The position numbers and the translations under genes were made by a program. Of a stretch of DNA of 10,876 bases, positions 1 to 10,876 are shown piece by piece (position 1 is the first letter of the stretch; every line of letters begins with the position of its first letter). A model generated the notes under the pieces. That model was given only the letters and a program-made list of their open reading frames with translations, did not search any database and was not told the DNA's origin. Source of the DNA: Candidatus Hodarchaeota archaeon (GTDB taxonomy: Archaea > Asgardarchaeota > Heimdallarchaeia > Hodarchaeales > Hodarchaeaceae); assembly GCA_016840035.1 (NCBI GenBank), contig JAEOTC010000085.1, forward strand, positions 1 through 10,876. The letters run 5' to 3'.

Positions 1-1
1 G

Positions 2-256
2 TCTCTTGATCCGAGCAATGCCCAAAAACTCGGATTAAACGAAGCATTTGGTGTTTGGATGAACTTAACAAGAGATGAGCTACTTAGAGACGATGTTTTT
101 GTTACTCTTGATGAGAATCAAACTAGTGTTCTTACTAAGTCTATATCCTCAAATCCTACAAAAGCACGAGTATCAGGTTTTGAATGGACATTTCTCACTT
201 TCCTAATAATTGCTATAATTAAACGACATAGAATCAATCTTAAAACAAAGTTGTGA
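2..256 (+). CDS. 3' fragment of an exported/surface protein with a C-terminal PGF-CTERM/Heimdall-CTERM-like sorting and anchor signal (5' end lies outside the window)
   Basis: The frame is open from base 2 (SLDPSNAQKLGLNEAFGVW, then the 59..256 ORF), so ATG59 is probably internal. It ends in an S/T-rich linker (TSVLTKSISSNPT), SGFE, a hydrophobic stretch WTFLTFLIIAII and basic KRHR..K.K. Confidence 0.75.
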   Translation, partial: SLDPSNAQKLGLNEAFGVWMNLTRDELLRDDVFVTLDENQTSVLTKSISSNPTKARVSGFEWTFLTFLIIAIIKRHRINLKTKL

Positions 257-274
257 ACTGTATAGCAAAGCTAT

Positions 275-3112
275 CTACTCCCTTTGATTAAATGAAAGAA
301 TCTTGATTTCATGTGGATCAAAGGTGATTTCTCCAGTACCATCAGTTATTTGGATTGTTTCTTTGATAGTTCCATCAATACGTATGGATTTAGTCATTGA
401 AACACGTTTTGGAACATTTATAAATGTGTTAACTGATTTAGCAGAGATATTATACACGGTAGCCCAAATCTCTTTTTCTCGCAATCGAAGAGAGGAGATT
501 CGTATAGCTGGATCAAATACTTGAAGCATGGGTATCAATATTTCATCTAAAGGTTCTTTTTGAGGATAATATACTGTTGTAGGAGGTAGGGTGAAGAGTT
601 CAGCTTGATCATAGCTTGAATGCAAAGGATCCGATTTCTTGTGTAGCCAAATACTATATTCAAAAATATATGTCTCATTGATTTCTTGGGCACCAGGTGT
701 AGCTAAATACGGGCCAGCGTGTTCAGGCCGTTCTGGAATATCAGATCTCGATAACCATCCAATAGCACGAAGTAATGTTAAACTAAGTTGTGATTTATTG
801 ACAAGTTCGACTTCTGGTAATCCTTTATTGATCAGTGTAACAGCGGTTTTTCCCTTTGGATCATCAATCCGAATGAATGCCTTTTGGGGCTGAATTCCAC
901 TCGCTTCTTCCAGAAAATTTGGGTTCTGTTCTGGTACTCCTAGTCTTTTGATAGTACCAAAATGTGTTGAAGTCTTTGTCTGAGATGCCTCAAATGGTAG
1001 GGGAAAACAAACTCTTAATCTATGGTCTTGTGCTAAGTTGATTAGTTCTGTTTTTATATCAATTCGAGGAATATCCCGATAAAATCGAAATACCATCGAA
1101 ACAGGAATTGTAACTTTCCCAATTCGATTCTGTCTCGATTCATTAATCATTTCATATAATTCAAGATCTATAGTCTGTTCTATTTCCGCATAAACAGGCC
1201 CAGTAGTGCTTAGCTTTCTTTTAAGGATTTTTACTTTTACAAATTCTGGCCCAAGCCGTCCAAAAGTATATTCGTCTCCTCGATCTCCCCAATCTTCAAA
1301 GAAATGCAAATTTTTGTATTGAATCTTAGTTTGCTTCTCGTAAAGGTCAAATGTTCCATTCTTGGTAAACTTAACGGTATAGAATTCATTTTCAACTCGA
1401 TCTTTACTTATCTCAAACAGCTTTTCTGGCATGGAAGTATTTGGAGGGACATCATGATGTACTCTTAGCTTCGTAAAAGCCCAGGCATTGAGTGGAACTA
1501 AAGCCGTGTACGCTAGATGTGCTTCCTTTGTCACAAGAATGTGAAATTTTTTGTAATTCTTTTCTTCAATCAATTTTAAGAATTCATTCTTCATCTTATT
1601 AACATCGAAGTCTCCAACAGGCTGATCACCTACAATAATGCGTACTTGACAGAGATTGCCATTATCTTTGTCCGTAATTGTTGCCTCATTGAGGTAAATA
1701 CCCATGATTTGACGTCTTGGAAGTAATTTTAACAAATTTTTTAGCTTGAAGGGCCCTGTGGTCATTTCCCAGAGTTTTGTAGCAGAACTGCCAACTTCTT
1801 GAATCTCATAGTAATTCTTCTCGAAGCTAAGGTAACGAGGAGAGGTTTTCTCTGAGGAGGAAAAACTAACTAGAGCAGGAAGGTCGGAGGTATTTGTCGG
1901 GTTAAAACTTAGACAGAAAGAGTTCTTGGATATTTGATTTTGCACTGCTAAATGATCCTTATTTTCGTCTAAGATTGCTTCCACTATTGATACTGCTTGA
2001 GTATATCGTGTTTTCATCTCTAGATGTGTTTGGTCTATTGAACAACCACATATCGAATCATGTGGTTGATTATGGAGATGAAATCGCCAAGCTTCTAAGA
2101 GAAAAGAGCTTGGATAACTTTTCTTGTAAATCCACCAACAATATGCGCTTAATGGTTCCGCATACTTTACTAAGAGATCTTCAAGCTTCTGATTCCATTG
2201 TTTTATCCACATTCTTGCTGAATAAGTATCTTGGAGTAGATGTGCTCGTGCAGGGGATCTAAACTCACCTATATATTCCATAGCTTGATACCCTGTTGAC
2301 TCAATGGTTGAAGTTAATTTCTTGACATAATCAGAAAGGTTTCCTATTGATATCTCCATATTAGGGATTTGAAGTTTCTTCAGAGAATCAAAAATCCTGG
2401 TACTGGGAACTTGATGATCTGTTCCATAGTGTAACAGATAAACAGGGAGAGTAGAAGGTGTAAATTCGTCTAAATTCGCGATTAATTCTGGAATTATCTC
2501 TTGGAGTTTTTCCTCTTCATCTGGTAATCCTGATGCATTCCCATATCCAAATGGTAAATAAATACCTATCAGGGATCTTTTAGATTCAGTACTCCCCTTC
2601 CATTTAAAGGGAATTTCGGTGATTTGTAAAGGAACACCACGCCATACTACTGCAGTTGTTAGATAAGTAAGATCTCCTAGTAGTTGTGGGATCACATTTG
2701 AGTGACCAAACATATCAGGTAGATACCCCACATTCATTAAGGGAATATCAAAGCTGGTACTAAGGTCATAGGAGTATTCAAGATTTCGTATCAAACTTTC
2801 CTCTCCCACTAGCCAAATATCAGGAAGAAGGTACCAGGGGCCAACTATTATACGGCCTGCACGGATATAATCTAGAACTTCCTCTTTTCGTTCTGGCCGA
2901 ATCTCAAAATAGTCTTCTAACACTATAGTTTGTCCATCGAAGGTAAAAAAGAATTGATCATCCGTTTTCAACATTGTTAACAGTTCATCCACGAGTTTAA
3001 CAAGCTTAAAACGAAATGATTGGAAGGATAAATACCATTCACGATCCCAATGCGTATGCGGTGTAACAAAAACAGTTTTTACGCCCTCTTCTGACACGTT
3101 TGGTTTAGTCAA
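275..3112 (-). CDS. Glycoside hydrolase family 38 alpha-mannosidase (MngB/mannosylglycerate-hydrolase-like subgroup)
   Basis: 945 aa with GH38 motifs: PHTHWDREWY (Zn ligands), FTFDGQ, VGPWYLLPD, GYLPDMFGH (nucleophile Asp), GTDH (acid/base region), QPHDSICGCSID, DWGDRGDEY and LTLLRAIGWLSR. The TTG start has GGTGAT 5 nt upstream. Confidence 0.95.
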   Translation of the reverse strand: MTKPNVSEEGVKTVFVTPHTHWDREWYLSFQSFRFKLVKLVDELLTMLKTDDQFFFTFDGQTIVLEDYFEIRPERKEEVLDYIRAGRIIVGPWYLLPDIWLVGEESLIRNLEYSYDLSTSFDIPLMNVGYLPDMFGHSNVIPQLLGDLTYLTTAVVWRGVPLQITEIPFKWKGSTESKRSLIGIYLPFGYGNASGLPDEEEKLQEIIPELIANLDEFTPSTLPVYLLHYGTDHQVPSTRIFDSLKKLQIPNMEISIGNLSDYVKKLTSTIESTGYQAMEYIGEFRSPARAHLLQDTYSARMWIKQWNQKLEDLLVKYAEPLSAYCWWIYKKSYPSSFLLEAWRFHLHNQPHDSICGCSIDQTHLEMKTRYTQAVSIVEAILDENKDHLAVQNQISKNSFCLSFNPTNTSDLPALVSFSSSEKTSPRYLSFEKNYYEIQEVGSSATKLWEMTTGPFKLKNLLKLLPRRQIMGIYLNEATITDKDNGNLCQVRIIVGDQPVGDFDVNKMKNEFLKLIEEKNYKKFHILVTKEAHLAYTALVPLNAWAFTKLRVHHDVPPNTSMPEKLFEISKDRVENEFYTVKFTKNGTFDLYEKQTKIQYKNLHFFEDWGDRGDEYTFGRLGPEFVKVKILKRKLSTTGPVYAEIEQTIDLELYEMINESRQNRIGKVTIPVSMVFRFYRDIPRIDIKTELINLAQDHRLRVCFPLPFEASQTKTSTHFGTIKRLGVPEQNPNFLEEASGIQPQKAFIRIDDPKGKTAVTLINKGLPEVELVNKSQLSLTLLRAIGWLSRSDIPERPEHAGPYLATPGAQEINETYIFEYSIWLHKKSDPLHSSYDQAELFTLPPTTVYYPQKEPLDEILIPMLQVFDPAIRISSLRLREKEIWATVYNISAKSVNTFINVPKRVSMTKSIRIDGTIKETIQITDGTGEITFDPHEIKILSFNQRE

Positions 3113-3117
3113 GGAGT

Positions 3118-3123
3118 ATCACC
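3118..3123 (-). promoter_or_regulatory. Archaeal-type Shine-Dalgarno (GGTGAT) for the GH38 gene
   Basis: Plus-strand atcacc at 3118-3123 reads GGTGAT on the minus strand, 5 nt before TTG at 3112. Confidence 0.7.
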
Positions 3124-3255
3124 AGTGAAATGACGTACTGGAGAGAAGAAAGAACTGGGAAAAAAAGGTTTTTACGTGAGTAAAATCTATCTTGATTGGA
3201 TAAAGAATTGTAAGTGCGTGTTTCTTACATCAAATACAGTTCTCAACTCTCCTCA

Positions 3256-3270
3256 CGAAAATCTTAAATC
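3256..3270 (+). promoter_or_regulatory. Putative BRE + TATA box for the MFS transporter gene
   Basis: CGAAAAT followed by CTTAAATC resembles archaeal BRE-TATA. It predicts a TSS near 3293-3296 and a ~30-nt leader containing the SD AGGTGA (3314-3319). Confidence 0.5.
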
Positions 3271-3324
3271 TATATTTTTTGACATCATCCTATTTCAGAA
3301 TACTGCAGTATCTAGGTGAAAGGT

Positions 3325-4794
3325 ATGGAAAAGGTAAGAACAGATAATCTCACTGAACTTTTTGATGAGCGTTTACCTTTCAGATCAAAAGTAGCTTATG
3401 GGTTATCTCAAGGCTCTAGTGCCATCCTTAGCGGTATTGCGATTGGTACTGCAATCACCTTTTTCTACAATGTAAAATTAGGTTTAAATGAGGAATGGGC
3501 CTCTCTAGCATGGCTTTTGTTCGCGTTTTGGAATGCTATTAACGATCCTTTATTTGGTATACTCCAAGAACGTATTGATACAGATATGGGAAGACGAATT
3601 CCTGTTCTTCGCTTTGGCGCACCACTTTATGCTCTTACTTTTATTATTTGCTGGTTTCCATTTATGGGAAATACGCAAATAGCTCTCTTCTGGAATCTTT
3701 TACTCGTTCTCTTTTTGATCGACTCTATGTTCACGATGATTGGTTTAGTACTGACAGCATTACCTGCTGAGATGTGTCTAACGCAAGAAGCAAGATCTAA
3801 CCTTGGTTTGTACAATGCTGTTCTAGGAGCTACTGGTGGTGTATTGGCGGTGATACTCCCCTTAGTTTTACTCACCGATGAAACTTCAACCGAGCTCAAT
3901 CCTCTTTTCAAACCCATTATGATCTTGGTAGGAATAGTTGCTGGAACAATCTTGTTTATTGCAAGTCATTCATTGGTCGAAAACGAGTATGCACGAACTG
4001 AGGAACCCCTAGGTTTCATTGAATCAATGATTGAGACTTTGAAAAACAGGGAATTCCTCGCCTTTGAATCTAGTAATTTTATGCGAGAAGCAGCTTTTAC
4101 CATAATAATGGGATCCATGACCTATTTCTCGCAATATGTACTGAAATTACACGGTTTTTTAGCTTCCTTGTTATTATTTTCTGTCTTTATTCTCCTGCTG
4201 GTATCTAGCTTCATTGCTGATAGGATGGTGAAGATTTATGGCTTAAAACGAGTTTACATTGCCGGATTATTGCTAGCTAGTTGTGGCCTTGTAACTTTGT
4301 TTTTCTCGGGAGATTGGCTTGTTCCAGTGCTGCTGAGTTTTTCGATAGTTGGAATAGGGTTCGGTCCAGTGAATTTAATATTTAATCCACTGATGGCTGA
4401 TATAATGGACTACGATGAAATGTTAACTGGTAAAAGACGGGAAACAACTTATGCGGGTATGAACGCCTTACTCACTAAACCGGCTATTTCAATTGCGAAT
4501 GCTCTATTTCTGATAATTATCAGTAGGTTCGGGTTTGATAACACAGAATCTATCCAAACAGAATCAGCAGTCTTGGGAATTCAGTTAGCTTACTCCTTAG
4601 TTCCTGCAATCTTCTTCTTAATCAGTGCAATTACTTTATTTAAATGGTACAAACTAGATGGCAAACATTGGATAGCAAAAAAAGCAGAATTAGCAAAAAT
4701 ACATCTTCAGAAAGAAAGAGAATACATTGAACATCTTCAGAGAAAGGGAAAGATTTCCAAGGTTTATCAGAGACTATATAGAGAGAAATCGTAA
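3325..4794 (+). CDS. MFS transporter, glycoside-pentoside-hexuronide (GPH/MelB-like) family
   Basis: About 12 hydrophobic segments and GPH motifs KVAYG, WNAINDPLFG, DTDMGRRIP and ADIMDYDEMLTGKRRET. Start moved from GTG3316 to ATG3325 because AGGTGA (3314-3319) is an SD 5 nt upstream of that ATG. Confidence 0.92.
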   Translation: MEKVRTDNLTELFDERLPFRSKVAYGLSQGSSAILSGIAIGTAITFFYNVKLGLNEEWASLAWLLFAFWNAINDPLFGILQERIDTDMGRRIPVLRFGAPLYALTFIICWFPFMGNTQIALFWNLLLVLFLIDSMFTMIGLVLTALPAEMCLTQEARSNLGLYNAVLGATGGVLAVILPLVLLTDETSTELNPLFKPIMILVGIVAGTILFIASHSLVENEYARTEEPLGFIESMIETLKNREFLAFESSNFMREAAFTIIMGSMTYFSQYVLKLHGFLASLLLFSVFILLLVSSFIADRMVKIYGLKRVYIAGLLLASCGLVTLFFSGDWLVPVLLSFSIVGIGFGPVNLIFNPLMADIMDYDEMLTGKRRETTYAGMNALLTKPAISIANALFLIIISRFGFDNTESIQTESAVLGIQLAYSLVPAIFFLISAITLFKWYKLDGKHWIAKKAELAKIHLQKEREYIEHLQRKGKISKVYQRLYREKS

Positions 4795-4802
4795 GTTTGA
4801 CA

Positions 4803-5519
4803 TTAATCCGAAATACACAAATCCCTTAGAAACTGTTTAAATAGCTGTGGGGCAACTAATTCCGGTACATGTGTTGGTGTAGTCGTTTGAGCTTCTGTTC
4901 GGGGTAATGAATGCACTGTTGTTTCAGATGTTTGACCAACGGTATATAATTTTAGAAAGGCCAGGTCTAGCTCCCTTAAGTACTCAAATGACTGAAATGG
5001 AACAACTGGATCCTCAACATCCCAAAGAATATTGACATGTTTTTCCCACTTTCTTAGGTGATCTGCGAGTCTTTTCAGTCCCCCTGGAGCAATTAGTCCC
5101 AAAAGCTCAATTTTCTGGATTAATTCTACAGCAATTTCAATAGCTAATGCTCCACCTAAGCTTCTTCCACAAATGCCAATTTTTCGATTAGAGAATCGTC
5201 CAGTTAAATGATTTATCAATTCAACCAAACTAGCTTTTTTAATTTCAAATGTCTCTTCAATTTCCCTACCATAAAAATGTGATAAACCATTACCTAATGT
5301 ATCCACCTTGATAGCAATACAATGTTTATTTATTTGGTTTTGTAGAGGGTTCCAATGATTTACAGTTTGTGTTTTCTTACTTGCCCCATGTAGAAAAAAG
5401 ATGACTGGTTGATTCTCCTTAATCCTTTGATCTCGTATTCGCTCTATAGGAATTGATCTATAATGGATTTTTCCATAAGTACTTTCGAAATAATGAGATT
5501 CTTCAAGATTAGTACTCAT
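4803..5519 (-). CDS. Alpha/beta-fold serine hydrolase, capless (ABHD14-like spacing)
   Basis: FFLHGAS oxyanion loop, VDTLGNGLS, nucleophile elbow GRSLGG (5151-5168), WDVEDPVVP (catalytic Asp) and THVPE (catalytic His). ATG5519 is preferred to TTG5534 because a TATA box sits at -31..-24 from it. Confidence 0.88.
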   Translation of the reverse strand: MSTNLEESHYFESTYGKIHYRSIPIERIRDQRIKENQPVIFFLHGASKKTQTVNHWNPLQNQINKHCIAIKVDTLGNGLSHFYGREIEETFEIKKASLVELINHLTGRFSNRKIGICGRSLGGALAIEIAVELIQKIELLGLIAPGGLKRLADHLRKWEKHVNILWDVEDPVVPFQSFEYLRELDLAFLKLYTVGQTSETTVHSLPRTEAQTTTPTHVPELVAPQLFKQFLRDLCISD

Positions 5520-5542
5520 AAACCACACTTCCAAGATCTTTT

Positions 5543-5558
5543 GTTATAAATCTATTCT
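5543..5558 (-). promoter_or_regulatory. Putative BRE/TATA box (AGAATAGA-TTTATAAC) for a leaderless hydrolase transcript
   Basis: Minus-strand TTTATAAC at 5550..5543 lies 24-31 nt upstream of ATG5519, the spacing expected for an archaeal leaderless mRNA. Confidence 0.5.
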
Positions 5559-5643
5559 GGATTAGAATTTTGGGTATAGTTTTTGAGATGAAATAAATAA
5601 TCTCTTAAAAGAAAGATTACCTAACATTTCAATCAGTGATACT

Positions 5644-6186
5644 ATGGGAGAATATCAGGAAAAGGTCGAAAAACAACTGTGGACTATGCTTTGCTCCTCA
5701 AAAATTGATATTGGGAATAAGGAGGCATATCGACGTGTTTTCAAGCCTATATTTAAGATAAAGCATAAGGAAGCAGTCAAATTAGTTGAAGCTCCCCTAT
5801 GGTCGAAACTTTATTCCCTCACAAAAGAGATTCGAGATCCGAAAGAACTTCGGTCACAATTTATCTCCTTAACGAAATTCAATGTAGGAGAAGTCACAGA
5901 GCAGATCTGGAATATTATGCACCTCTCTGTGACTAAAACTTGTGATGAACGGACTTTTAAGGAACTTTACAAGCCTTTATTCAAAATAGACACAAAAAGA
6001 GCGGTGAAGTTCTTTGATGATCATTTGTGGGTGGCACTCTATTCCATTACTCAAAAAATTAGTGATCCTGAAGAAATGGGTAAGAAATTAAAATCACTTG
6101 TTCAACTCGATGTTAAACGTGCGGCTGAACTCATCAAAGAGATTGATCCCGAAAAACACCAGTTTCTACAATATTACAAGAGATAA
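5644..6186 (+). CDS. Hypothetical alpha-helical tandem-repeat protein (two 76-aa units, each made of two ~36-40-aa subunits)
   Basis: 180-aa ORF with AGTGAT before the ATG. Internal duplication at an exact 76-aa offset: QLW/QIW (11-13/87-89), FKPIFKI/YKPLFKI, AVK/AVK, LWSKLYSLT/LWVALYSIT, IRDP/ISDP. Confidence 0.85.
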   Translation: MGEYQEKVEKQLWTMLCSSKIDIGNKEAYRRVFKPIFKIKHKEAVKLVEAPLWSKLYSLTKEIRDPKELRSQFISLTKFNVGEVTEQIWNIMHLSVTKTCDERTFKELYKPLFKIDTKRAVKFFDDHLWVALYSITQKISDPEEMGKKLKSLVQLDVKRAAELIKEIDPEKHQFLQYYKR

Positions 6187-6361
6187 TGATGATTAATGTA
6201 TATTGTATGATATCAGTCTATTATGAATACGTTAAGAGAATTCTCGCTATTTTATCTTCTAGTAGGCCTTGTACTGTTTACTATTTACTGTCTATCAAAA
6301 ATGTGATAGGTAATTTTGATAATCCTTCATTCTATTCAATTCTTGCTCCTTCATTTGCCTC

Positions 6362-6379
6362 AAAAACCAACTATATAAC
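6362..6379 (+). promoter_or_regulatory. Putative promoter (A-rich BRE-like + TATATAA) for the 1039-aa fusion gene
   Basis: AAAAACCAAC-TATATAAC, with TATATAA at 6372-6378, about 50 nt upstream of GTG6428. Confidence 0.4.
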
Positions 6380-6427
6380 TCGATGAGAGTTAGGAGTAAA
6401 AGCAGAATAGACTTGGAATGGGCTTAA

Positions 6428-9400
6428 GTGAAACTAAAGATAGAATATAATGGCTTATCCATGGCAATCTTATTCTCAATGCTAATTTTGAGTATTTTAG
6501 TCAATAGTAATCCACTTATACATGAAATCCAAGCTTCTAAAGAAAATGGAGAACTAAAAAACCCAGATAAATTCATTTGGGAGACTCAAGGCCTCCCGTA
6601 CCAAATTGATTCCTTAGATCCAGGTATTAACTATGAAACTCCTGGATGTACAGTTGTTGAGATGGTTTATGAAACTTTAGTTGGATATAAGAGCAATTCT
6701 GTTGAGGAGGTCGAGGGGAGACTCGCAACAGATTGGACAATTTCCCCTGATGGACTTAAATATACCTTTAACCTACGGAATGACGTTCTATTTCACGATG
6801 GTGTTATCTTCAACGCGTATGTTATGAAATATTCACTTGACAGAGTGATTCTTATGAATGATCCCTGGGGTCCTTCTTGGATACTTGCTCGAGTTATTAG
6901 AGGAGGATCAACCTATATGGAGCACTTCAATCCTAATTATACCGAAGCACAGGCATATCTTGATTCTGGTGGAGTTGTTGTCATTGATGACTTTACTATT
7001 GAAATAAACCTTGCCTCAGCTTATTCACCTTTTCTTACCTCTTTAGCATTTGATGTTGCTAGTGCTGTATCCCCAAAAGCAGTCATTGAAAATCATCCTG
7101 CATCGTACACAGAGAACACTGAAGATGATGATCTGGGTATGGTTCCTCTAAATCTTTGGTTCCCATTCCTCACAGATTATTCTAAATTAGGATTGAAAAA
7201 TAATCAAAATTCACAGGATTCTGGTGTAGTTCCGGGTTCTCATCGTTTTAGTGTGGCCCGTCACGTATGGATGAAAGAACATGCAGTTGGATCTGGTGCC
7301 TATAAATTAAAACAAATCACAGAAGGTACAATCCTATTGGAAAAAAACCAAAATTGGTGGGGTACATTTAGTGCACATTCTGTTGAGGAAATCGAAATTC
7401 GGTCAGAATTAGATGATACAGTCCGGTTTCAGAATCTAATTGAGGGAACTTCGGATATGGTGTATGTAGAGAAAACAGACGTCCCTAAATTCAGATCTCC
7501 AGGAGGTGAATCCCTGTACGAGGATATAACCGTATTGACTGCCCCAACATCAACTACATATTTTCTTGGCATGAATATGAAGGAAAGTCTACCCTCCTCA
7601 TATCTCAATGAATCTGAAACATCTACTTACGATGCCAGTTCTTTACAACGGTTCGCAACTGGTGTTGAAAAGGCAAGTCAAGATAATCCATTTACCTCAC
7701 TTACGTTTCGAAGAGCGATGGCAAGTGCTTTTGATTACTCACATCATATAAATGATACATTGAATGGAATAGGCAAGCAAATGGAGGGAATAATTCCAGA
7801 AGGAATGCTTGGACATCATGATAATTTAAGAGAGCAGGGATTGTTACCTTCCTATGATTTAAACACAGCTCGAGCATTATTTGAGCAGGTTGGTTGGCAA
7901 GGTACGATTAAATTTGTCTATCCCGTGACTAGTGAAGTACTTTCCCTCTTATACTCATCATTAGCAAATTCTATAGTCTTATGCAATGTAGGAATAAGAG
8001 TTATCCTCCAACCCTTAGAACCAGCTCAGTACGATGAGGCGGCTTGGTTTCGAGAAATTCCTTTAACCTATTGTGGGTGGGCTGCGGATTATGCAGATCC
8101 TGATAATTTCATTACGCCATATCTACATGGAGAATTTGGTGTGTTTGCATCTCGTCTTTCTTATAACAATCCTTCTTTGAACTCTCTTATAGAATCAGCA
8201 GCTGTAGAACAAGATTTCGAGACTCGTCAACAAATGTATCAGAATATTGAGGAACAAGCAGCAAATGACTGTATATATATTTACCTTAACCAAAATTTGG
8301 AGATCTATGTCTTTCGAGATTGGATACAGAATTATGAAGAAAGTGGTTCCTTAAATCCAATGAGTTGTAGCCCCAATTTTCAACACATCGATAAAATTTA
8401 TGCTTTTTATGACCGTGATTTAGATGGAATGCCAGATATTTGGGAATTCGATATGGGACTTAATGTTTATGACCCAAGTGATGCAAAAATCGATTTAGAC
8501 GGCGATTGGGTTAATAATGTTGATGAGTTCCGAGGAGGATCGAATCCGCGTAATTTTTGGAGTTTCCCCATTATTAGCATTAGTATTTTCCATGTTCTTT
8601 TCATTTTTATTCTTGCTAATATAGCTTTAGCGTCCCTAATAGCTAAATTTAGAGAAGAAACAGAGAAACGTGATCTCATTGCCCGATTGAAGGCGCCAGA
8701 TTATGCTACTGCTTTAAAAACTCAAAAACTTGGTTTTGATAATTATATTGCACTCGTCCATAAGGAAACTGAAGCTAAAAATCTCCTTGACAAAGCAAGC
8801 ACTCTTTATCTTCAATGTGAATTCTTAAAGTCTATTCAGCAATACGAGTCTGCATTAGAAATATTTGAGCTCCTAGAAAATGATAGAATGATTGCTGAAA
8901 CAACTTTTCGAATGATTCTTCTTCAAAAAGAAACACAAATATTAACGTCTGATAGTCATATCTTAAACCGCTTTCCAAACCCTCCCTATACTGATCAAGT
9001 GATTTCGGCTTTTTATCACATGATTCAAGCCTTGGTGGCAGAATCTGAGAAAAACTGGGGTTCAGCAGAAAAAGAATGGAATATTGCACTAAATTATCCC
9101 GAGCTGGAAACTGAGTTTCACGTGATTTGTCAAAGTGCATTAGTTGAATCAGAATATAAGACATGGTTAAGTGATCCTTCTCCCTTATCAAAGAAGAGAC
9201 TCTTGACAATGTTAAATAACTTGCAGGACGACTGTGAGAATAACCAATACTACGCACATCTTTGTCAAGTGTTCTTATTGAGGACGAAAATTGGCATAGC
9301 TTCATTCCAGTTTGAAGATGTAGAATATTGGATTAACAAATGCTTAAGAATTGCACAACAAGAGGATATAAAGCTTTACTTTGATTTAGCCACAAAAGAA

Positions 9401-9547
9401 AATAATAAATTTGAACAACTTCGTAATAACATAACCTCTATACTTAAATTGGAAACTGAACTCACTACAGAAGAACAACAATACCGAGTGGAAGAGTATG
9501 TCCGTGAGGCACTAGGTATCAAGAAGAGGCAGAAGAATAATCAGTAA
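6428..9547 (+). CDS. Single-pass membrane protein: signal/hydrophobic N-terminus, family-5 (DppA/OppA/NikA-like) solute-binding domain, TSP3-like Ca-binding repeats, TM helix and TPR-like helical C-terminal domain
   Basis: Solute-binding motifs SLDP, VYETLV, LATDWTISPDGLKYTFNLRNDVLFHDG..FNA..VMKYSLDR, AVGSGAYKL, RRAMASAFD and GWAADYADPDNF (aa ~49-657). DRDLDGMPDIWE...DLDGDWVNNVDEFRGGSNP at aa 662-707. TM IISISIFHVLFIFILANIALASLIA at aa 715-739, then 300 aa with TPR-like patterns. Alternative start ATG6461. Confidence 0.9.
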   Translation: MKLKIEYNGLSMAILFSMLILSILVNSNPLIHEIQASKENGELKNPDKFIWETQGLPYQIDSLDPGINYETPGCTVVEMVYETLVGYKSNSVEEVEGRLATDWTISPDGLKYTFNLRNDVLFHDGVIFNAYVMKYSLDRVILMNDPWGPSWILARVIRGGSTYMEHFNPNYTEAQAYLDSGGVVVIDDFTIEINLASAYSPFLTSLAFDVASAVSPKAVIENHPASYTENTEDDDLGMVPLNLWFPFLTDYSKLGLKNNQNSQDSGVVPGSHRFSVARHVWMKEHAVGSGAYKLKQITEGTILLEKNQNWWGTFSAHSVEEIEIRSELDDTVRFQNLIEGTSDMVYVEKTDVPKFRSPGGESLYEDITVLTAPTSTTYFLGMNMKESLPSSYLNESETSTYDASSLQRFATGVEKASQDNPFTSLTFRRAMASAFDYSHHINDTLNGIGKQMEGIIPEGMLGHHDNLREQGLLPSYDLNTARALFEQVGWQGTIKFVYPVTSEVLSLLYSSLANSIVLCNVGIRVILQPLEPAQYDEAAWFREIPLTYCGWAADYADPDNFITPYLHGEFGVFASRLSYNNPSLNSLIESAAVEQDFETRQQMYQNIEEQAANDCIYIYLNQNLEIYVFRDWIQNYEESGSLNPMSCSPNFQHIDKIYAFYDRDLDGMPDIWEFDMGLNVYDPSDAKIDLDGDWVNNVDEFRGGSNPRNFWSFPIISISIFHVLFIFILANIALASLIAKFREETEKRDLIARLKAPDYATALKTQKLGFDNYIALVHKETEAKNLLDKASTLYLQCEFLKSIQQYESALEIFELLENDRMIAETTFRMILLQKETQILTSDSHILNRFPNPPYTDQVISAFYHMIQALVAESEKNWGSAEKEWNIALNYPELETEFHVICQSALVESEYKTWLSDPSPLSKKRLLTMLNNLQDDCENNQYYAHLCQVFLLRTKIGIASFQFEDVEYWINKCLRIAQQEDIKLYFDLATKENNKFEQLRNNITSILKLETELTTEEQQYRVEEYVREALGIKKRQKNNQ
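8411..8548 (+). repeat. Two thrombospondin type-3-like (DxDxDG..D/N..E) calcium-binding repeats within the fusion protein
   Basis: DRDLDGMPDIWEFDMGLNV and DLDGDWVNNVDEFRGGSNP match the bacterial/archaeal TSP3 pattern DxDxDGxxDxxE...GxxP. Confidence 0.8.
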
Positions 9548-9597
9548 AGAAAGTAACTGAAAATTGTTACAAATTTACATATTATGAACAAAAAGAA

Positions 9598-10506
9598 TCA
9601 TAACGATGATTTCTCTTCATGTTCAAACCACTTTTTTAATTCACTGGGCGAATATCGCAATAAATTCCGGAAAAACCGATATACTTTAGGATGAGATTTG
9701 TAAGATAGATTTAGTTCAGTCCAAGGAGTGTGGATTTTTTTTGCGAGTATGAGGAAAAAAAATCGCTCCTCTTCTAGCATCTGATCTTTTATTGAGGTCA
9801 TTACAGATTGGCTTACCTTTTTAGCTGTTGGATAAAAACTTGGATCTGATTCATCCCACTCTTCCTCTCTAGAGTCCTCAGTAAACACAAGAGGTTTACA
9901 AATAGAGACTGAAATAAAGGATTTAATTCTGGGAATGGACTTTCCAAAGGCCAAAGCTTCATGTGATCCATGAATATAGACTGGTACAACAGGTACTCTT
10001 CCATTCGTCTTTAAAACAAGTCGTCCTATCCCTGTTTTAGCCTGCTCAACTAATTCCCGAAGATCATCTACGGGAGTACTTGGTATACGTTTTCCTTGTG
10101 GAGCAATTAAAACTGCCAGGTTATTATTTAATAGATGAACTGTATATTCAAGAGCAGGAGTTGAATTCTGTGGATAGACAGGATATGCACCTAAATATTT
10201 AAGCAGATAAAAGAACTTATTTTCCTCCATCGCATTGCCATTTGTCATTAATCCACAAGCAGTCCTGTTTCCATAAGGATATACTAAAGCACTTGCAAAA
10301 AGAAAGGTATCTAAATGTGAACGATGGTTGAAACAATAGATTACGGGGACACCCTCTGGTAATCTTTTTATATACTTAAGATTCCGAACCTCAAACCGAA
10401 AATATAACCGAAAAAACCGAGGAAGCATCAATTTAATAAATTGGTAAAGCATTCGGTGAGGGAAGCTCCAGTCATGTAAGGTGTTATCAGGTATTCTTAG
10501 ACGCAT
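9598..10506 (-). CDS. Lysophospholipid/glycerolipid acyltransferase, PlsC/LPLAT superfamily (atypical motifs)
   Basis: Catalytic block I NHRSHLD (H61-x4-D66), block II-like LGAYPVYP, block III-like IAPQGKR and block IV KTGIGRL...VPVVPVYIHG, with an amphipathic N-terminal helix. The symbol plsC is withheld because the motifs deviate. Confidence 0.9.
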   Translation of the reverse strand: MRLRIPDNTLHDWSFPHRMLYQFIKLMLPRFFRLYFRFEVRNLKYIKRLPEGVPVIYCFNHRSHLDTFLFASALVYPYGNRTACGLMTNGNAMEENKFFYLLKYLGAYPVYPQNSTPALEYTVHLLNNNLAVLIAPQGKRIPSTPVDDLRELVEQAKTGIGRLVLKTNGRVPVVPVYIHGSHEALAFGKSIPRIKSFISVSICKPLVFTEDSREEEWDESDPSFYPTAKKVSQSVMTSIKDQMLEEERFFFLILAKKIHTPWTELNLSYKSHPKVYRFFRNLLRYSPSELKKWFEHEEKSSL

Positions 10507-10544
10507 TATTCTAACCTAATATAACAAAGCTGTGAACGATAAAA

Positions 10545-10820
10545 TTAGCGAATTGTACACATTAAACGAAGCAAATAATCATCTTGAATGCCGCATTCAG
10601 CCAAATTTTTAGACTCATCCAATTTTTCTTTGGTATCTGGATGCATTAAGTAAAAATGTTCTTTCAATCGTTCCATATACGAAGGTTGTGGCTCTTTCTT
10701 AGCACTTTTCAATACTTCTTGTATTCTAGTAGTTGAAGGATCATCTATTTCAATAGAAAATCGTGATGATTCACGATACTCCTCACCAGAATAGAATCCA
10801 TTTGTGATGATGATTTTCAT
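10545..10820 (-). CDS. Ubiquitin-like (beta-grasp) protein without the C-terminal di-glycine
   Basis: By-eye alignment to ubiquitin: MKIIIT~MQIFVK, FSIEIDDPSTTRIQEVLKSA~ITLEVEPSDTIENVKAKI, KLDESKNLAECGIQDDYLLRLMCTIR~[26 protein letters not shown](GG). Confidence 0.72.
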   Translation of the reverse strand: MKIIITNGFYSGEEYRESSRFSIEIDDPSTTRIQEVLKSAKKEPQPSYMERLKEHFYLMHPDTKEKLDESKNLAECGIQDDYLLRLMCTIR

Positions 10821-10876
10821 CTTATTCTAGTATTGAAATAACTAGATCTTTTTTCTTTATCGGAGATTATTCAATA

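Follow-up and report, generated by a model that had tools for sequence, protein, structure and literature searches.

The window analyzed in this study is an entire contig of 10,876 bp (C27; JAEOTC010000085.1, positions 1 to 10,876 of the forward strand) from the draft genome of a Candidatus Hodarchaeota archaeon (GCA_016840035.1; 4.3 Mb, 293 contigs, 87% complete). It carries a gene for a protein of 1039 aa, hereafter the window protein, in which a complete solute-binding protein (SBP) domain of family 5, an acidic stalk, a single transmembrane (TM) helix and a tetratricopeptide repeat (TPR)-type tail follow one another (Table 1). A preliminary description, made from the letters alone, had named a family-5 SBP domain, two TSP3-like repeats, a TM helix of 25 aa, the charged segment KFREETEKR and a helical tail of 300 aa, all of which we recovered where it had placed them, and had interpreted the whole as an orphan SBP built into a receptor-like protein. 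The term is apt insofar as an ATP-binding cassette (ABC) operon is lacking, but it misses that the gene appears to be a fusion of an SBP/WD40-tail gene pair whose membrane module is widely shared within the genus. The earlier reading had overlooked that the TSP3-TM-tail part is a reusable module, found mostly on WD40 proteins encoded downstream of separate SBP5 genes. Whether the window protein acts as an ABC-independent, binding-protein-coupled transmembrane sensor or scaffold, the interpretation we favor, seems to us about evenly balanced.

Table 1. Coordinates of the window gene, its parts and the other genes of the window.
Feature	Coordinates	Strand	Basis or remark
Whole gene	6428..9547	+	Open reading frame (ORF) open throughout, stop codon included; 1039 aa
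N-terminal signal-like segment	6428..6535	+	K-rich n-region, hydrophobic core aa 12-30 (hydropathy); orthologue N-termini
Complete family-5 (cluster C, Dpp/Opp/Nik type) solute-binding ectodomain, aa 37-660	6536..8407	+	Pfam, NCBIfam, PDB, Foldseek
Acidic stalk, aa 661-714	8408..8569	+	Two TSP3-like DxDxDGxxDxxE repeats (aa 662, 689), then GGSNPRNFWSFP
Single TM helix, aa 715-739 (25 aa)	8570..8644	+	Kyte-Doolittle hydropathy 2.54; continuous model helix 720-754
TPR-type solenoid tail (300 aa), aa 740-1039	8645..9544	+	AlphaFold2, VIA, profile search, hhalign
Juxtamembrane LKAPDY motif, aa 754-759	8687..8704	+	Family alignments; kept family-wide
One canonical TPR motif, tail positions ~35-67	8747..8845	+	A4 profile against designed consensus TPR proteins
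AExEKNWGxAEKxW motif, tail 132-142 (aa 871-881)	9038..9070	+	Invariant columns; centre of the predicted symmetric homodimer interface
180-aa protein, upstream neighbor	5644..6186	+	Two internal repeats of ~85 aa
PlsC-type acyltransferase, convergent	9598..10506	-	Pfam (PF01553)
GH38 alpha-mannosidase	275..3112	-
GPH/MFS_2 glycoside symporter	3316..4794	+
Alpha/beta hydrolase	4803..5534	-
91-aa ORF	10545..10820	-	Faint NCBIfam match

Domain architecture of the window protein

The gene caller placed the start at ATG 6461 (1028 aa), whereas the GTG at 6428 adds the residues MKLKIEYNGLS and thereby a basic, Lys-containing n-region as found in the orthologues, all of which begin with a signal-peptide-like N-terminus. 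In the full-length AlphaFold2 (AF2) model, built from a 15-row alignment with a pLDDT of 70.6, this signal-like segment forms helix 2-26, and a putative cleavage site reads ...EIQA/SKENG. The ectodomain that follows is matched by the Pfam family SBP_bac_5 (PF00496) over aa 94-568 (E 1.9e-54; 185.7 bits against a cut-off of 32.4) with coverage of profile positions 1-363 of 368, and sequence matches in the PDB reach an E value of 1.4e-25. NCBIfam models for Nik, Dpp, Opp and SapA jointly span aa 57-639, all with scores far under their equivalog cut-offs, so that the protein can be called a member of the family while its specificity is not assignable from these models. The full-length model shows an alpha/beta two-lobed domain with a pLDDT of only ~60-90, which Foldseek aligned with the whole structures of DppA, OppA and NikA over ~600 columns (E 1e-22; TM-score on the target 0.6-0.73). 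The nearest solved relatives, at 15-19% identity, bind peptides, nickel chelates, opines or glutathione, which does not allow a ligand to be assigned; a peptide, a metal chelate and an oligosaccharide are all possible. Closer relatives exist in the same genome, where the SBP paralogues C227 and C21 are 41-44% identical to the window protein over aa 8-658.

Between ectodomain and membrane lies the stalk, the repeats of which were located by motif scan; the sole library match is the NCBIfam model for thrombospondin-type-3 repeats of MtsD (aa 660-708, E 3.6e-4, far under the cut-off), and PF18884 (bacterial TSP3) matches the paralogues P0076 and P0019 but not the window protein. The stalk is conserved in the WD40 and NosD paralogues introduced below, including GGSNPRNFWSFP as a conserved pre-membrane motif between the stalk repeats and the TM helix. 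Model confidence is low in this part (residues 635-722), from which we take it that the stalk may be either flexible or Ca-dependent. The TM helix is followed directly by the charged segment KFREETEKR, and across 40 family members the flank of the TM helix on the tail side carries 4.75 Lys plus Arg residues on average and the outer flank 1.65. Together with the SBP fold, which is obligatorily extracytoplasmic, and the signal-like N-terminus, this positive-inside bias points to a type I single-pass membrane protein with a cytoplasmic tail, an assignment that follows from general topology rules and agrees with the preliminary description.

The tail was modeled from a 58-row alignment as an all-helical domain of 14 helices (pLDDT 94.4, pTM 0.89). 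Foldseek found no match for it in the PDB at E<=0.001, and the top matches of the VIA structural search were all TPR proteins, led by TSK (Z 15.8), APC (Z 14.6) and DdvA (Z 14.6) and continued by NprR (Z 13.8), LGN (Z 13.7) and PlcR (Z 13.5). We considered a kinship with DdvA, an anti-sigma factor, through its TPR part but dismissed the resemblance as generic, DdvA being one among many unrelated TPR proteins. A search of the ESM Atlas with the tail returned TPR_12-type clusters only. When the tail profile A4 was compared with the PDB, only designed or consensus TPRs were hit, and these through one motif (positions 35-67), with E values down to 1e-23 on multi-repeat targets; none of the Pfam TPR models reports the window protein at E<=0.01, and the orthologue P0009 has a precomputed PF13424 match. 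The AF2 fold, the restriction of structural matches to TPR proteins and the profile match to consensus TPRs thus suggest that the tail is a solenoid of the TPR type in which a single motif is canonical and which has no close relative among solved structures. The claim of a non-enzymatic TPR-like alpha-solenoid devoid of kinase, cyclase or MCP motifs has therefore held up: Pfam and NCBIfam gave nothing on aa 740-1039, and no recognized output domain was detected there.

Tail columns W138, A141, W145, W229, C233 and Y285 are invariant in the family alignments A3 and A4, and E133 in the NWG motif is likewise listed as invariant. Prediction with two copies of the tail on alignment A4 gave a homodimer with a score of 0.48, with individual runs at 0.47, 0.48 and 0.50 and three controls at 0.00; the runs share at least 57% of their contacts, with a partner pLDDT of at least 84. 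The predicted interface comprises tail residues 132-142, 172-176, 219-221 and 259-263 and includes a W138-W138 contact. In the calibration of this score, 20 of 30 solved homodimers and 1 of 23 monomers came up to this mark, a comparison to be taken as rough in the present case, where our own alignment was used. Self-association of the tail is supported by these models and would make the conserved NWG region a dimerization element.

A shared C-terminal module and its paired SBP genes

A search of 1.84 billion cluster representatives (50%-identity clusters) with aa 721-1039 matched 149 clusters (E<1e-30 for 51), and phmmer returned E values of 1e-37 to 1e-96 for 50 clusters that share the C-terminal block. 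The strong matches are proteins of 900-1400 aa in which the matched part is invariably C-terminal. WD40 propellers were found in 36 of the 38 strong-match proteins scanned and a NosD beta-helix in one partial protein. What these proteins have in common is the last acidic repeat, the FWSxP motif, the TM helix, the LKAPDY motif and the tail with its NWG and LCxxYLLRA motifs; this stalk-TM-tail block is a shared, reusable C-terminal module. In most full-length WD40 members, a hydrophobic signal-like helix stands at the N-terminus, which places the propellers outside the cell. Compared with the window protein, the WD40-TSP3-TM-tail proteins of the same genus are homologous over the C-terminal module (30-43% identity over ~300 aa plus the last repeat and the TM helix) and share its LKAPDY, FPxPP, NWG and LCxxYLLRA motifs, but they carry two WD40 propellers and 5-15 repeats where the window protein has a family-5 SBP domain, two repeats and no separate upstream SBP gene.

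At 50% identity the SBP version falls into one cluster, with orthologues of 1039-1050 aa and 50-85% identity in at least eight genomes labeled as Heimdallarchaeota or Hodarchaeales at the source. With the tail profile (E<=1e-10), a sample of 251 genomes from across the phylum yielded the module in 12, every one of them from a single genus (11 of the 16 sampled relatives), and in none of the 62 other genera. Genomes hold one to five copies, the five being found in relative G015, and in four genomes the fused gene is the sole family member; in the genome of the window, neither single-sequence nor profile searches found a second tail copy. A tandem of WD40-tail genes at L046:5480-13118 (1228 and 1236 aa) consists of close paralogues and represents a recent duplication. 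Database names of the relatives are generic ('WD40 repeat protein', 'TPR repeat protein', 'hypothetical'), and our literature search found no description of the module family.

Weaker matches form a group of proteins 450-650 aa long that carry TPR_12 arrays at the N-terminus; 35 of 40 are without a TM helix and 4 of 40 have a MarR/HTH (helix-turn-helix) domain. Homology with the tail extends over their C-terminal 260 aa (hhalign probability 100%, E 5e-57, 262 columns), and the consensus of these soluble Heimdallarchaeia proteins ('group 2') includes the FPxPP and NWG region, as does the window protein. In place of stalk and membrane helix, these mostly TM-free proteins have the TPR_12 arrays. 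To judge from this homology, the C-terminal domain of the TPR_12 group was probably the origin of the tail domain. The soluble TPR proteins that a group-2 profile finds in the genome of the window lack the FPxPP and NWG motifs, so that this genome, at 87% completeness, offers no soluble paralogue as a heterodimer candidate for the tail.

To place the module in its genomic context, 20 loci were fetched and their genes mapped, 13 of them being WD40-tail loci. At 8 of these 13, a PF00496 gene immediately precedes the WD40-tail gene in the same orientation, the gap being 9-60 nt (L036, L037, L040 with two copies, L041, L043, L045 and L048), with a divergent arrangement in L042. The paired SBPs are of the ordinary anchored form, with a signal, the SBP domain, a Ser/Thr-rich linker, a TM helix and RRKR, and no permease or dpp ATPase gene lies beside the SBP/WD40-tail genes at the loci examined; further upstream in L040, genes for a 3-hydroxyacyl-CoA dehydrogenase and an epimerase were found, which are not ABC genes. 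Pairing covers three separate SBP5 clades and at least four deep tail lineages, with the orthologous loci L040, L041 and L043 taken as one case. In G018, the pair at L036 is followed immediately downstream by a RuBisCO large-subunit-like gene (452 aa; L036:6844-8202, minus strand).

The eight fused ectodomains form a clade in the SBP tree (SH-aLRT 95), with the L036 SBP (796 aa) as its sister (SH-aLRT 96); the gene of this SBP precedes a WD40-tail gene in a genome where the fused form is present as well. The fused tails, too, are monophyletic in the tail tree (support 97), and the stalk of the fused proteins has 2 repeats versus 5-15 in the WD40 forms. The simplest history in line with these trees would be that the window gene is a Rosetta-stone fusion, in which an SBP and the stalk of the partner encoded downstream of it became joined by a deletion and the fused lineage lost the WD40 part and most stalk repeats. 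By the Rosetta-stone argument, a fusion of this kind argues that the SBP and the WD40-tail protein of a cassette act together. An assembly chimera or mis-joined ORF that would have combined an SBP and a tail from different genes is conceivable in a draft genome of 293 contigs but has become so improbable as to be negligible: the 1039-1050-aa architecture recurs at 50-85% identity in at least eight genomes, single-contig assemblies of 3.2 Mb included, the fused clade is recovered congruently from SBP and tail sequences, and the GC content runs across the junction without a break. The search for the same architecture in relatives that the preliminary description had called for thus settled, through eight independent genomes, that the junction is not chimeric.

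Gene neighborhoods and the absence of an ABC operon

No BPD_transp_1 (PF00528) permease gene was found on the contig, all 25 matches in the genome being on other contigs, and no dpp-type ABC operon surrounds the fused gene in the window or, within ~10 kb, at the seven orthologue loci. The preliminary description, which had seen no ABC gene next to the window gene and listed a repeat protein and a convergent acyltransferase as its neighbors, is thereby borne out by contig-wide Pfam searches; its concern that homologues might sit in ABC operons did not materialize for any of the 7 orthologues (50-85% identical). In five relatives with the fused gene, permease genes lie on other contigs or 39 kb away. 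An exception is G001, where a fused double permease, two ATPases without oligo_HPY and a PhoU-like gene are located 4-6 kb from the orthologue, with an oppositely oriented pyruvate kinase gene in between. This set was rejected as a dpp partner, as it lacks oligo_HPY, adjoins a PhoU-like gene and is not of the dpp type; likewise, the ABC pair adjacent to the G002 orthologue (ABC_membrane plus ABC_tran) was set aside as exporter-type and SBP-independent. In G001, a prolyl oligopeptidase gene (S9; L031:7780-9855, plus strand) is convergent after the fused orthologue, followed by a gene for a soluble 506-aa TPR_MalT/TPR_12 protein (L031:5872-7392, minus strand); the S9 peptidase might hint at a peptide ligand, in this one genome only.

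Ordinary SBPs of the same genome present a different picture. C215, the own-genome orthologue of the cassette-type SBP, adjoins two ABC_tran plus oligo_HPY ATPase genes (dppDF) and a permease gene, and C227 has three permease genes at a distance of 3.5 kb. The statement that archaeal SBPs usually end in a short anchor is exemplified by the paralogues C227 and C21, which terminate in a Ser/Thr-rich linker, a TM helix and RKRR. As cluster C SBPs, they share the binding fold, the N-terminal signal and membrane tethering with the window protein; the difference is that such ordinary SBPs end in 4-6 basic residues after linker and TM helix and are encoded near permeases and ATPases, whereas the window protein continues from an acidic stalk through the TM helix into a 300-aa tail.

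These findings bear on the possibility that the window protein is an ordinary ABC substrate-binding subunit with an elaborate anchor, which would hand peptide, nickel or oligosaccharide to a dpp-type importer encoded at another place in the genome, the module serving only to tether, cluster or position surface proteins; we regard this as rather unlikely. Membrane attachment as such would be expected of any archaeal SBP, these proteins being always membrane-tethered (PMC8050422), yet a conserved cytosolic domain of 300 aa with invariant motifs would be costly as a mere anchor. The complete SBP fold and the presence of ~25 BPD_transp_1 matches and dppDF ATPases on other contigs would suit a transport subunit, but the eight orthologous fused genes lie outside dpp operons while the short-anchor paralogues lie near permeases. 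Finally, the same module bears unrelated ectodomains, so that its role need not concern solutes; the recurrent pairing of separate SBP genes with WD40-tail genes, however, would be unexpected for a device that merely holds proteins at the surface.

Two further kinds of genes recur near the module genes. A cassette of a MinD/ParA-like ATPase (AAA_31/ParA) and two small family-less proteins (~181 and 178 aa) adjoins WD40-tail genes at L040:7856-9872, L041:7245-9276 and L043:2048-4072, and a MinD-like gene is also found near WD40-tail genes at L038 and L047. In the genome of the window, a MinD/ParA-like ATPase gene paired with one for a 181-aa protein stands beside genes for soluble TPR proteins on two contigs (C253:6454-7767 and C177:14651-15949). 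The TPR domains might have a partner system in this cassette. NosD/beta-helix genes neighbor module genes at L033:8628-9905, L030:1-3797, L035:13997-16000, L038:16107-19136 and L044:1-1602, and the genome of the window has at least 29 NosD-like ORFs; these NosD-rich stretches around module genes give the impression of islands of surface proteins.

Adhesins and surface arrays commonly contain TSP3-type repeats, WD40 propellers and NosD beta-helices. It is thus conceivable, if unlikely in our estimate, that the proteins form a surface adhesion and organization module, in which a stalk stiffened by Ca connects the extracellular binding domains with a positioning or cytoskeletal system in the cytoplasm; the SBP domain would then be a lectin-like binder, and the module would serve attachment or envelope architecture and not solute sensing. 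The domain types typical of adhesins and the frequency of NosD neighbors speak for such a module, but the fused lineage has dropped WD40 and kept a complete ligand-binding SBP fold. The MinD/ParA-like cassettes at L040, L041 and L043, together with the nearby genes at L038 and L047, would provide a positioning system for the WD40 forms, whereas no MinD gene was found near the fused genes; and a predicted dimer would suit lattice formation, although in four genomes the fused gene is the sole family member.

The remaining genes of the window appear less connected with the window gene. The 180-aa protein encoded upstream contains the repeat motifs LW..L.S...I / FKP.FKI..K.AVK, has no Pfam or NCBIfam family match and no paralogue in its own genome, and recurs 1.5-2 kb upstream of the fused gene at 2 of the 7 orthologue loci with 60-76% identity; it is at most a candidate member of the same system. 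The acyltransferase gene adjoins the fused gene at the 4 closest of the 7 orthologue loci (5 of 8 including the window) in varying position, which probably reflects plain synteny. An operon of the fused gene with the acyltransferase, the 180-aa repeat protein and the alpha/beta hydrolase was considered, but as these neighbors are shared only by the closest orthologues (~70% identical) and change their positions, we read the arrangement as residual synteny. Further upstream, the GH38 alpha-mannosidase, which also resembles mannosylglycerate hydrolase, forms a sugar-use cluster with the symporter and the hydrolase; GH38 and symporter genes are not syntenic with the fused gene in other genomes, so that no link to the SBP ligand is evident. 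The 91-aa ORF at the far end gave a faint NCBIfam match to Gins23 (E 0.006, far under the cut-off) and may encode a small GINS-like protein or possibly be no gene. Rfam and tRNA scans of the window found nothing.

Comparison with known systems and possible function

To our knowledge, binding-protein-dependent signaling always ends in an MCP, a histidine kinase, a c-di-GMP enzyme or a Ser/Thr kinase. In Halobacterium salinarum, basB and cosB are located just upstream of basT and cosT and encode the SBPs of SBP-dependent chemoreceptors (PMC8050422). The WD40-tail cassettes resemble these systems in that an anchored SBP without an ABC transporter is encoded upstream of its presumed membrane partner, a gene arrangement away from transporters that characterizes the receptors of PMC8050422 and that recurs at the WD40-tail loci, the two partners being fused in the window. 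The inventories differ, however: BasT and CosT combine dCache-like sensing domains with MCP domains that feed CheA, whereas the module has WD40 outside and TPR inside, without MCP, HAMP or kinase domains; BasB and CosB belong to PF13458 and PF04069 instead of PF00496, and the window protein is one chain, not two.

A second parallel is provided by the relay that leads, in Actinobacteria, from the SBP GlnH via the non-enzymatic membrane protein GlnX to the kinase PknG, activation of which needs its TPR domain (PMC6069109; PMC8050422). SBP, non-enzymatic membrane protein and a TPR domain needed for the response are thus common ground, but in the PknG system the TPR domain resides in the soluble kinase and GlnX has four TM helices and 4HB domains, while in the window protein the TPR domain is its own tail and no kinase was identified. 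Neither a WD40 sensing domain nor output through the receptor's own TPR domain occurs in BasT-, CosT- or GlnX-type systems. Since the window protein is without the recognized cytoplasmic output domain or bound kinase that marks such receptors, it works at most like the SBP-stimulated receptors and is not a member of them. The likeness to class C G-protein-coupled receptors and ionotropic glutamate receptors, to which the preliminary description had pointed, is an analogy of design only.

As a sensor or scaffold independent of ABC transport, the window protein would capture a ligand with its SBP domain outside the cell; capture would alter the geometry or the association of the dimeric module by way of stalk and TM helix, and the cytoplasmic TPR scaffold would then gain or lose cytosolic partners. 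The fused form and the pairs of SBP and WD40-tail protein would accordingly be the same kind of sensor, once in one chain and once in two. Signaling, ligand and partners are what we infer, and the dimer is predicted only. Several observations weigh against this interpretation. No cytosolic partner of the tail has been identified, no kinase gene is a conserved neighbor at the mapped loci, and Pfam and NCBIfam revealed no output enzyme, MCP, HAMP, kinase or DNA-binding domain in the protein. The structural Z scores of the tail (13-16) are in the usual range for helical repeats, and TPR domains are generic scaffolds; the tail dimer is a model score obtained with our own alignment, and no measurement. 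Ectodomains of the WD40 and NosD kinds are found in adhesins just as typically as in receptors, and the several dpp-type permease/ATPase sets of the genome could use the window SBP in trans. Of course, genes may be adjacent without their products interacting, and genomes that are related do not count as independent samples.

A wider version of the sensor or scaffold interpretation, which we put forward tentatively and hold to be less likely than not, is that the module defines an enzyme-free family of single-pass receptors in one Hodarchaeales genus, similar to eukaryotic type I receptors and built from swappable ectodomains on a Ca-binding stalk. Outside the cell, WD40 propellers, beta-helices or SBP domains, either docked in trans or fused in cis, would do the sensing, and the dimerizing TPR tail would signal by recruitment or release of partners, for which the soluble TPR paralogues with the dimer domain, some of them with HTH, or the MinD/ParA-type ATPase might be candidates. 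Hodarchaeales are among the closest known archaeal relatives of eukaryotes, and if this version were true, a scaffold-based, domain-swapping receptor design would exist in the lineage nearest to them. If the scaffold transmits information, it would represent a new way of solute sensing in archaea, for which the fused form offers sensor and output in one polypeptide for experiments. Even if the tail were only an elaborate anchor, the module would still define a new surface-display module for Asgard cell biology.

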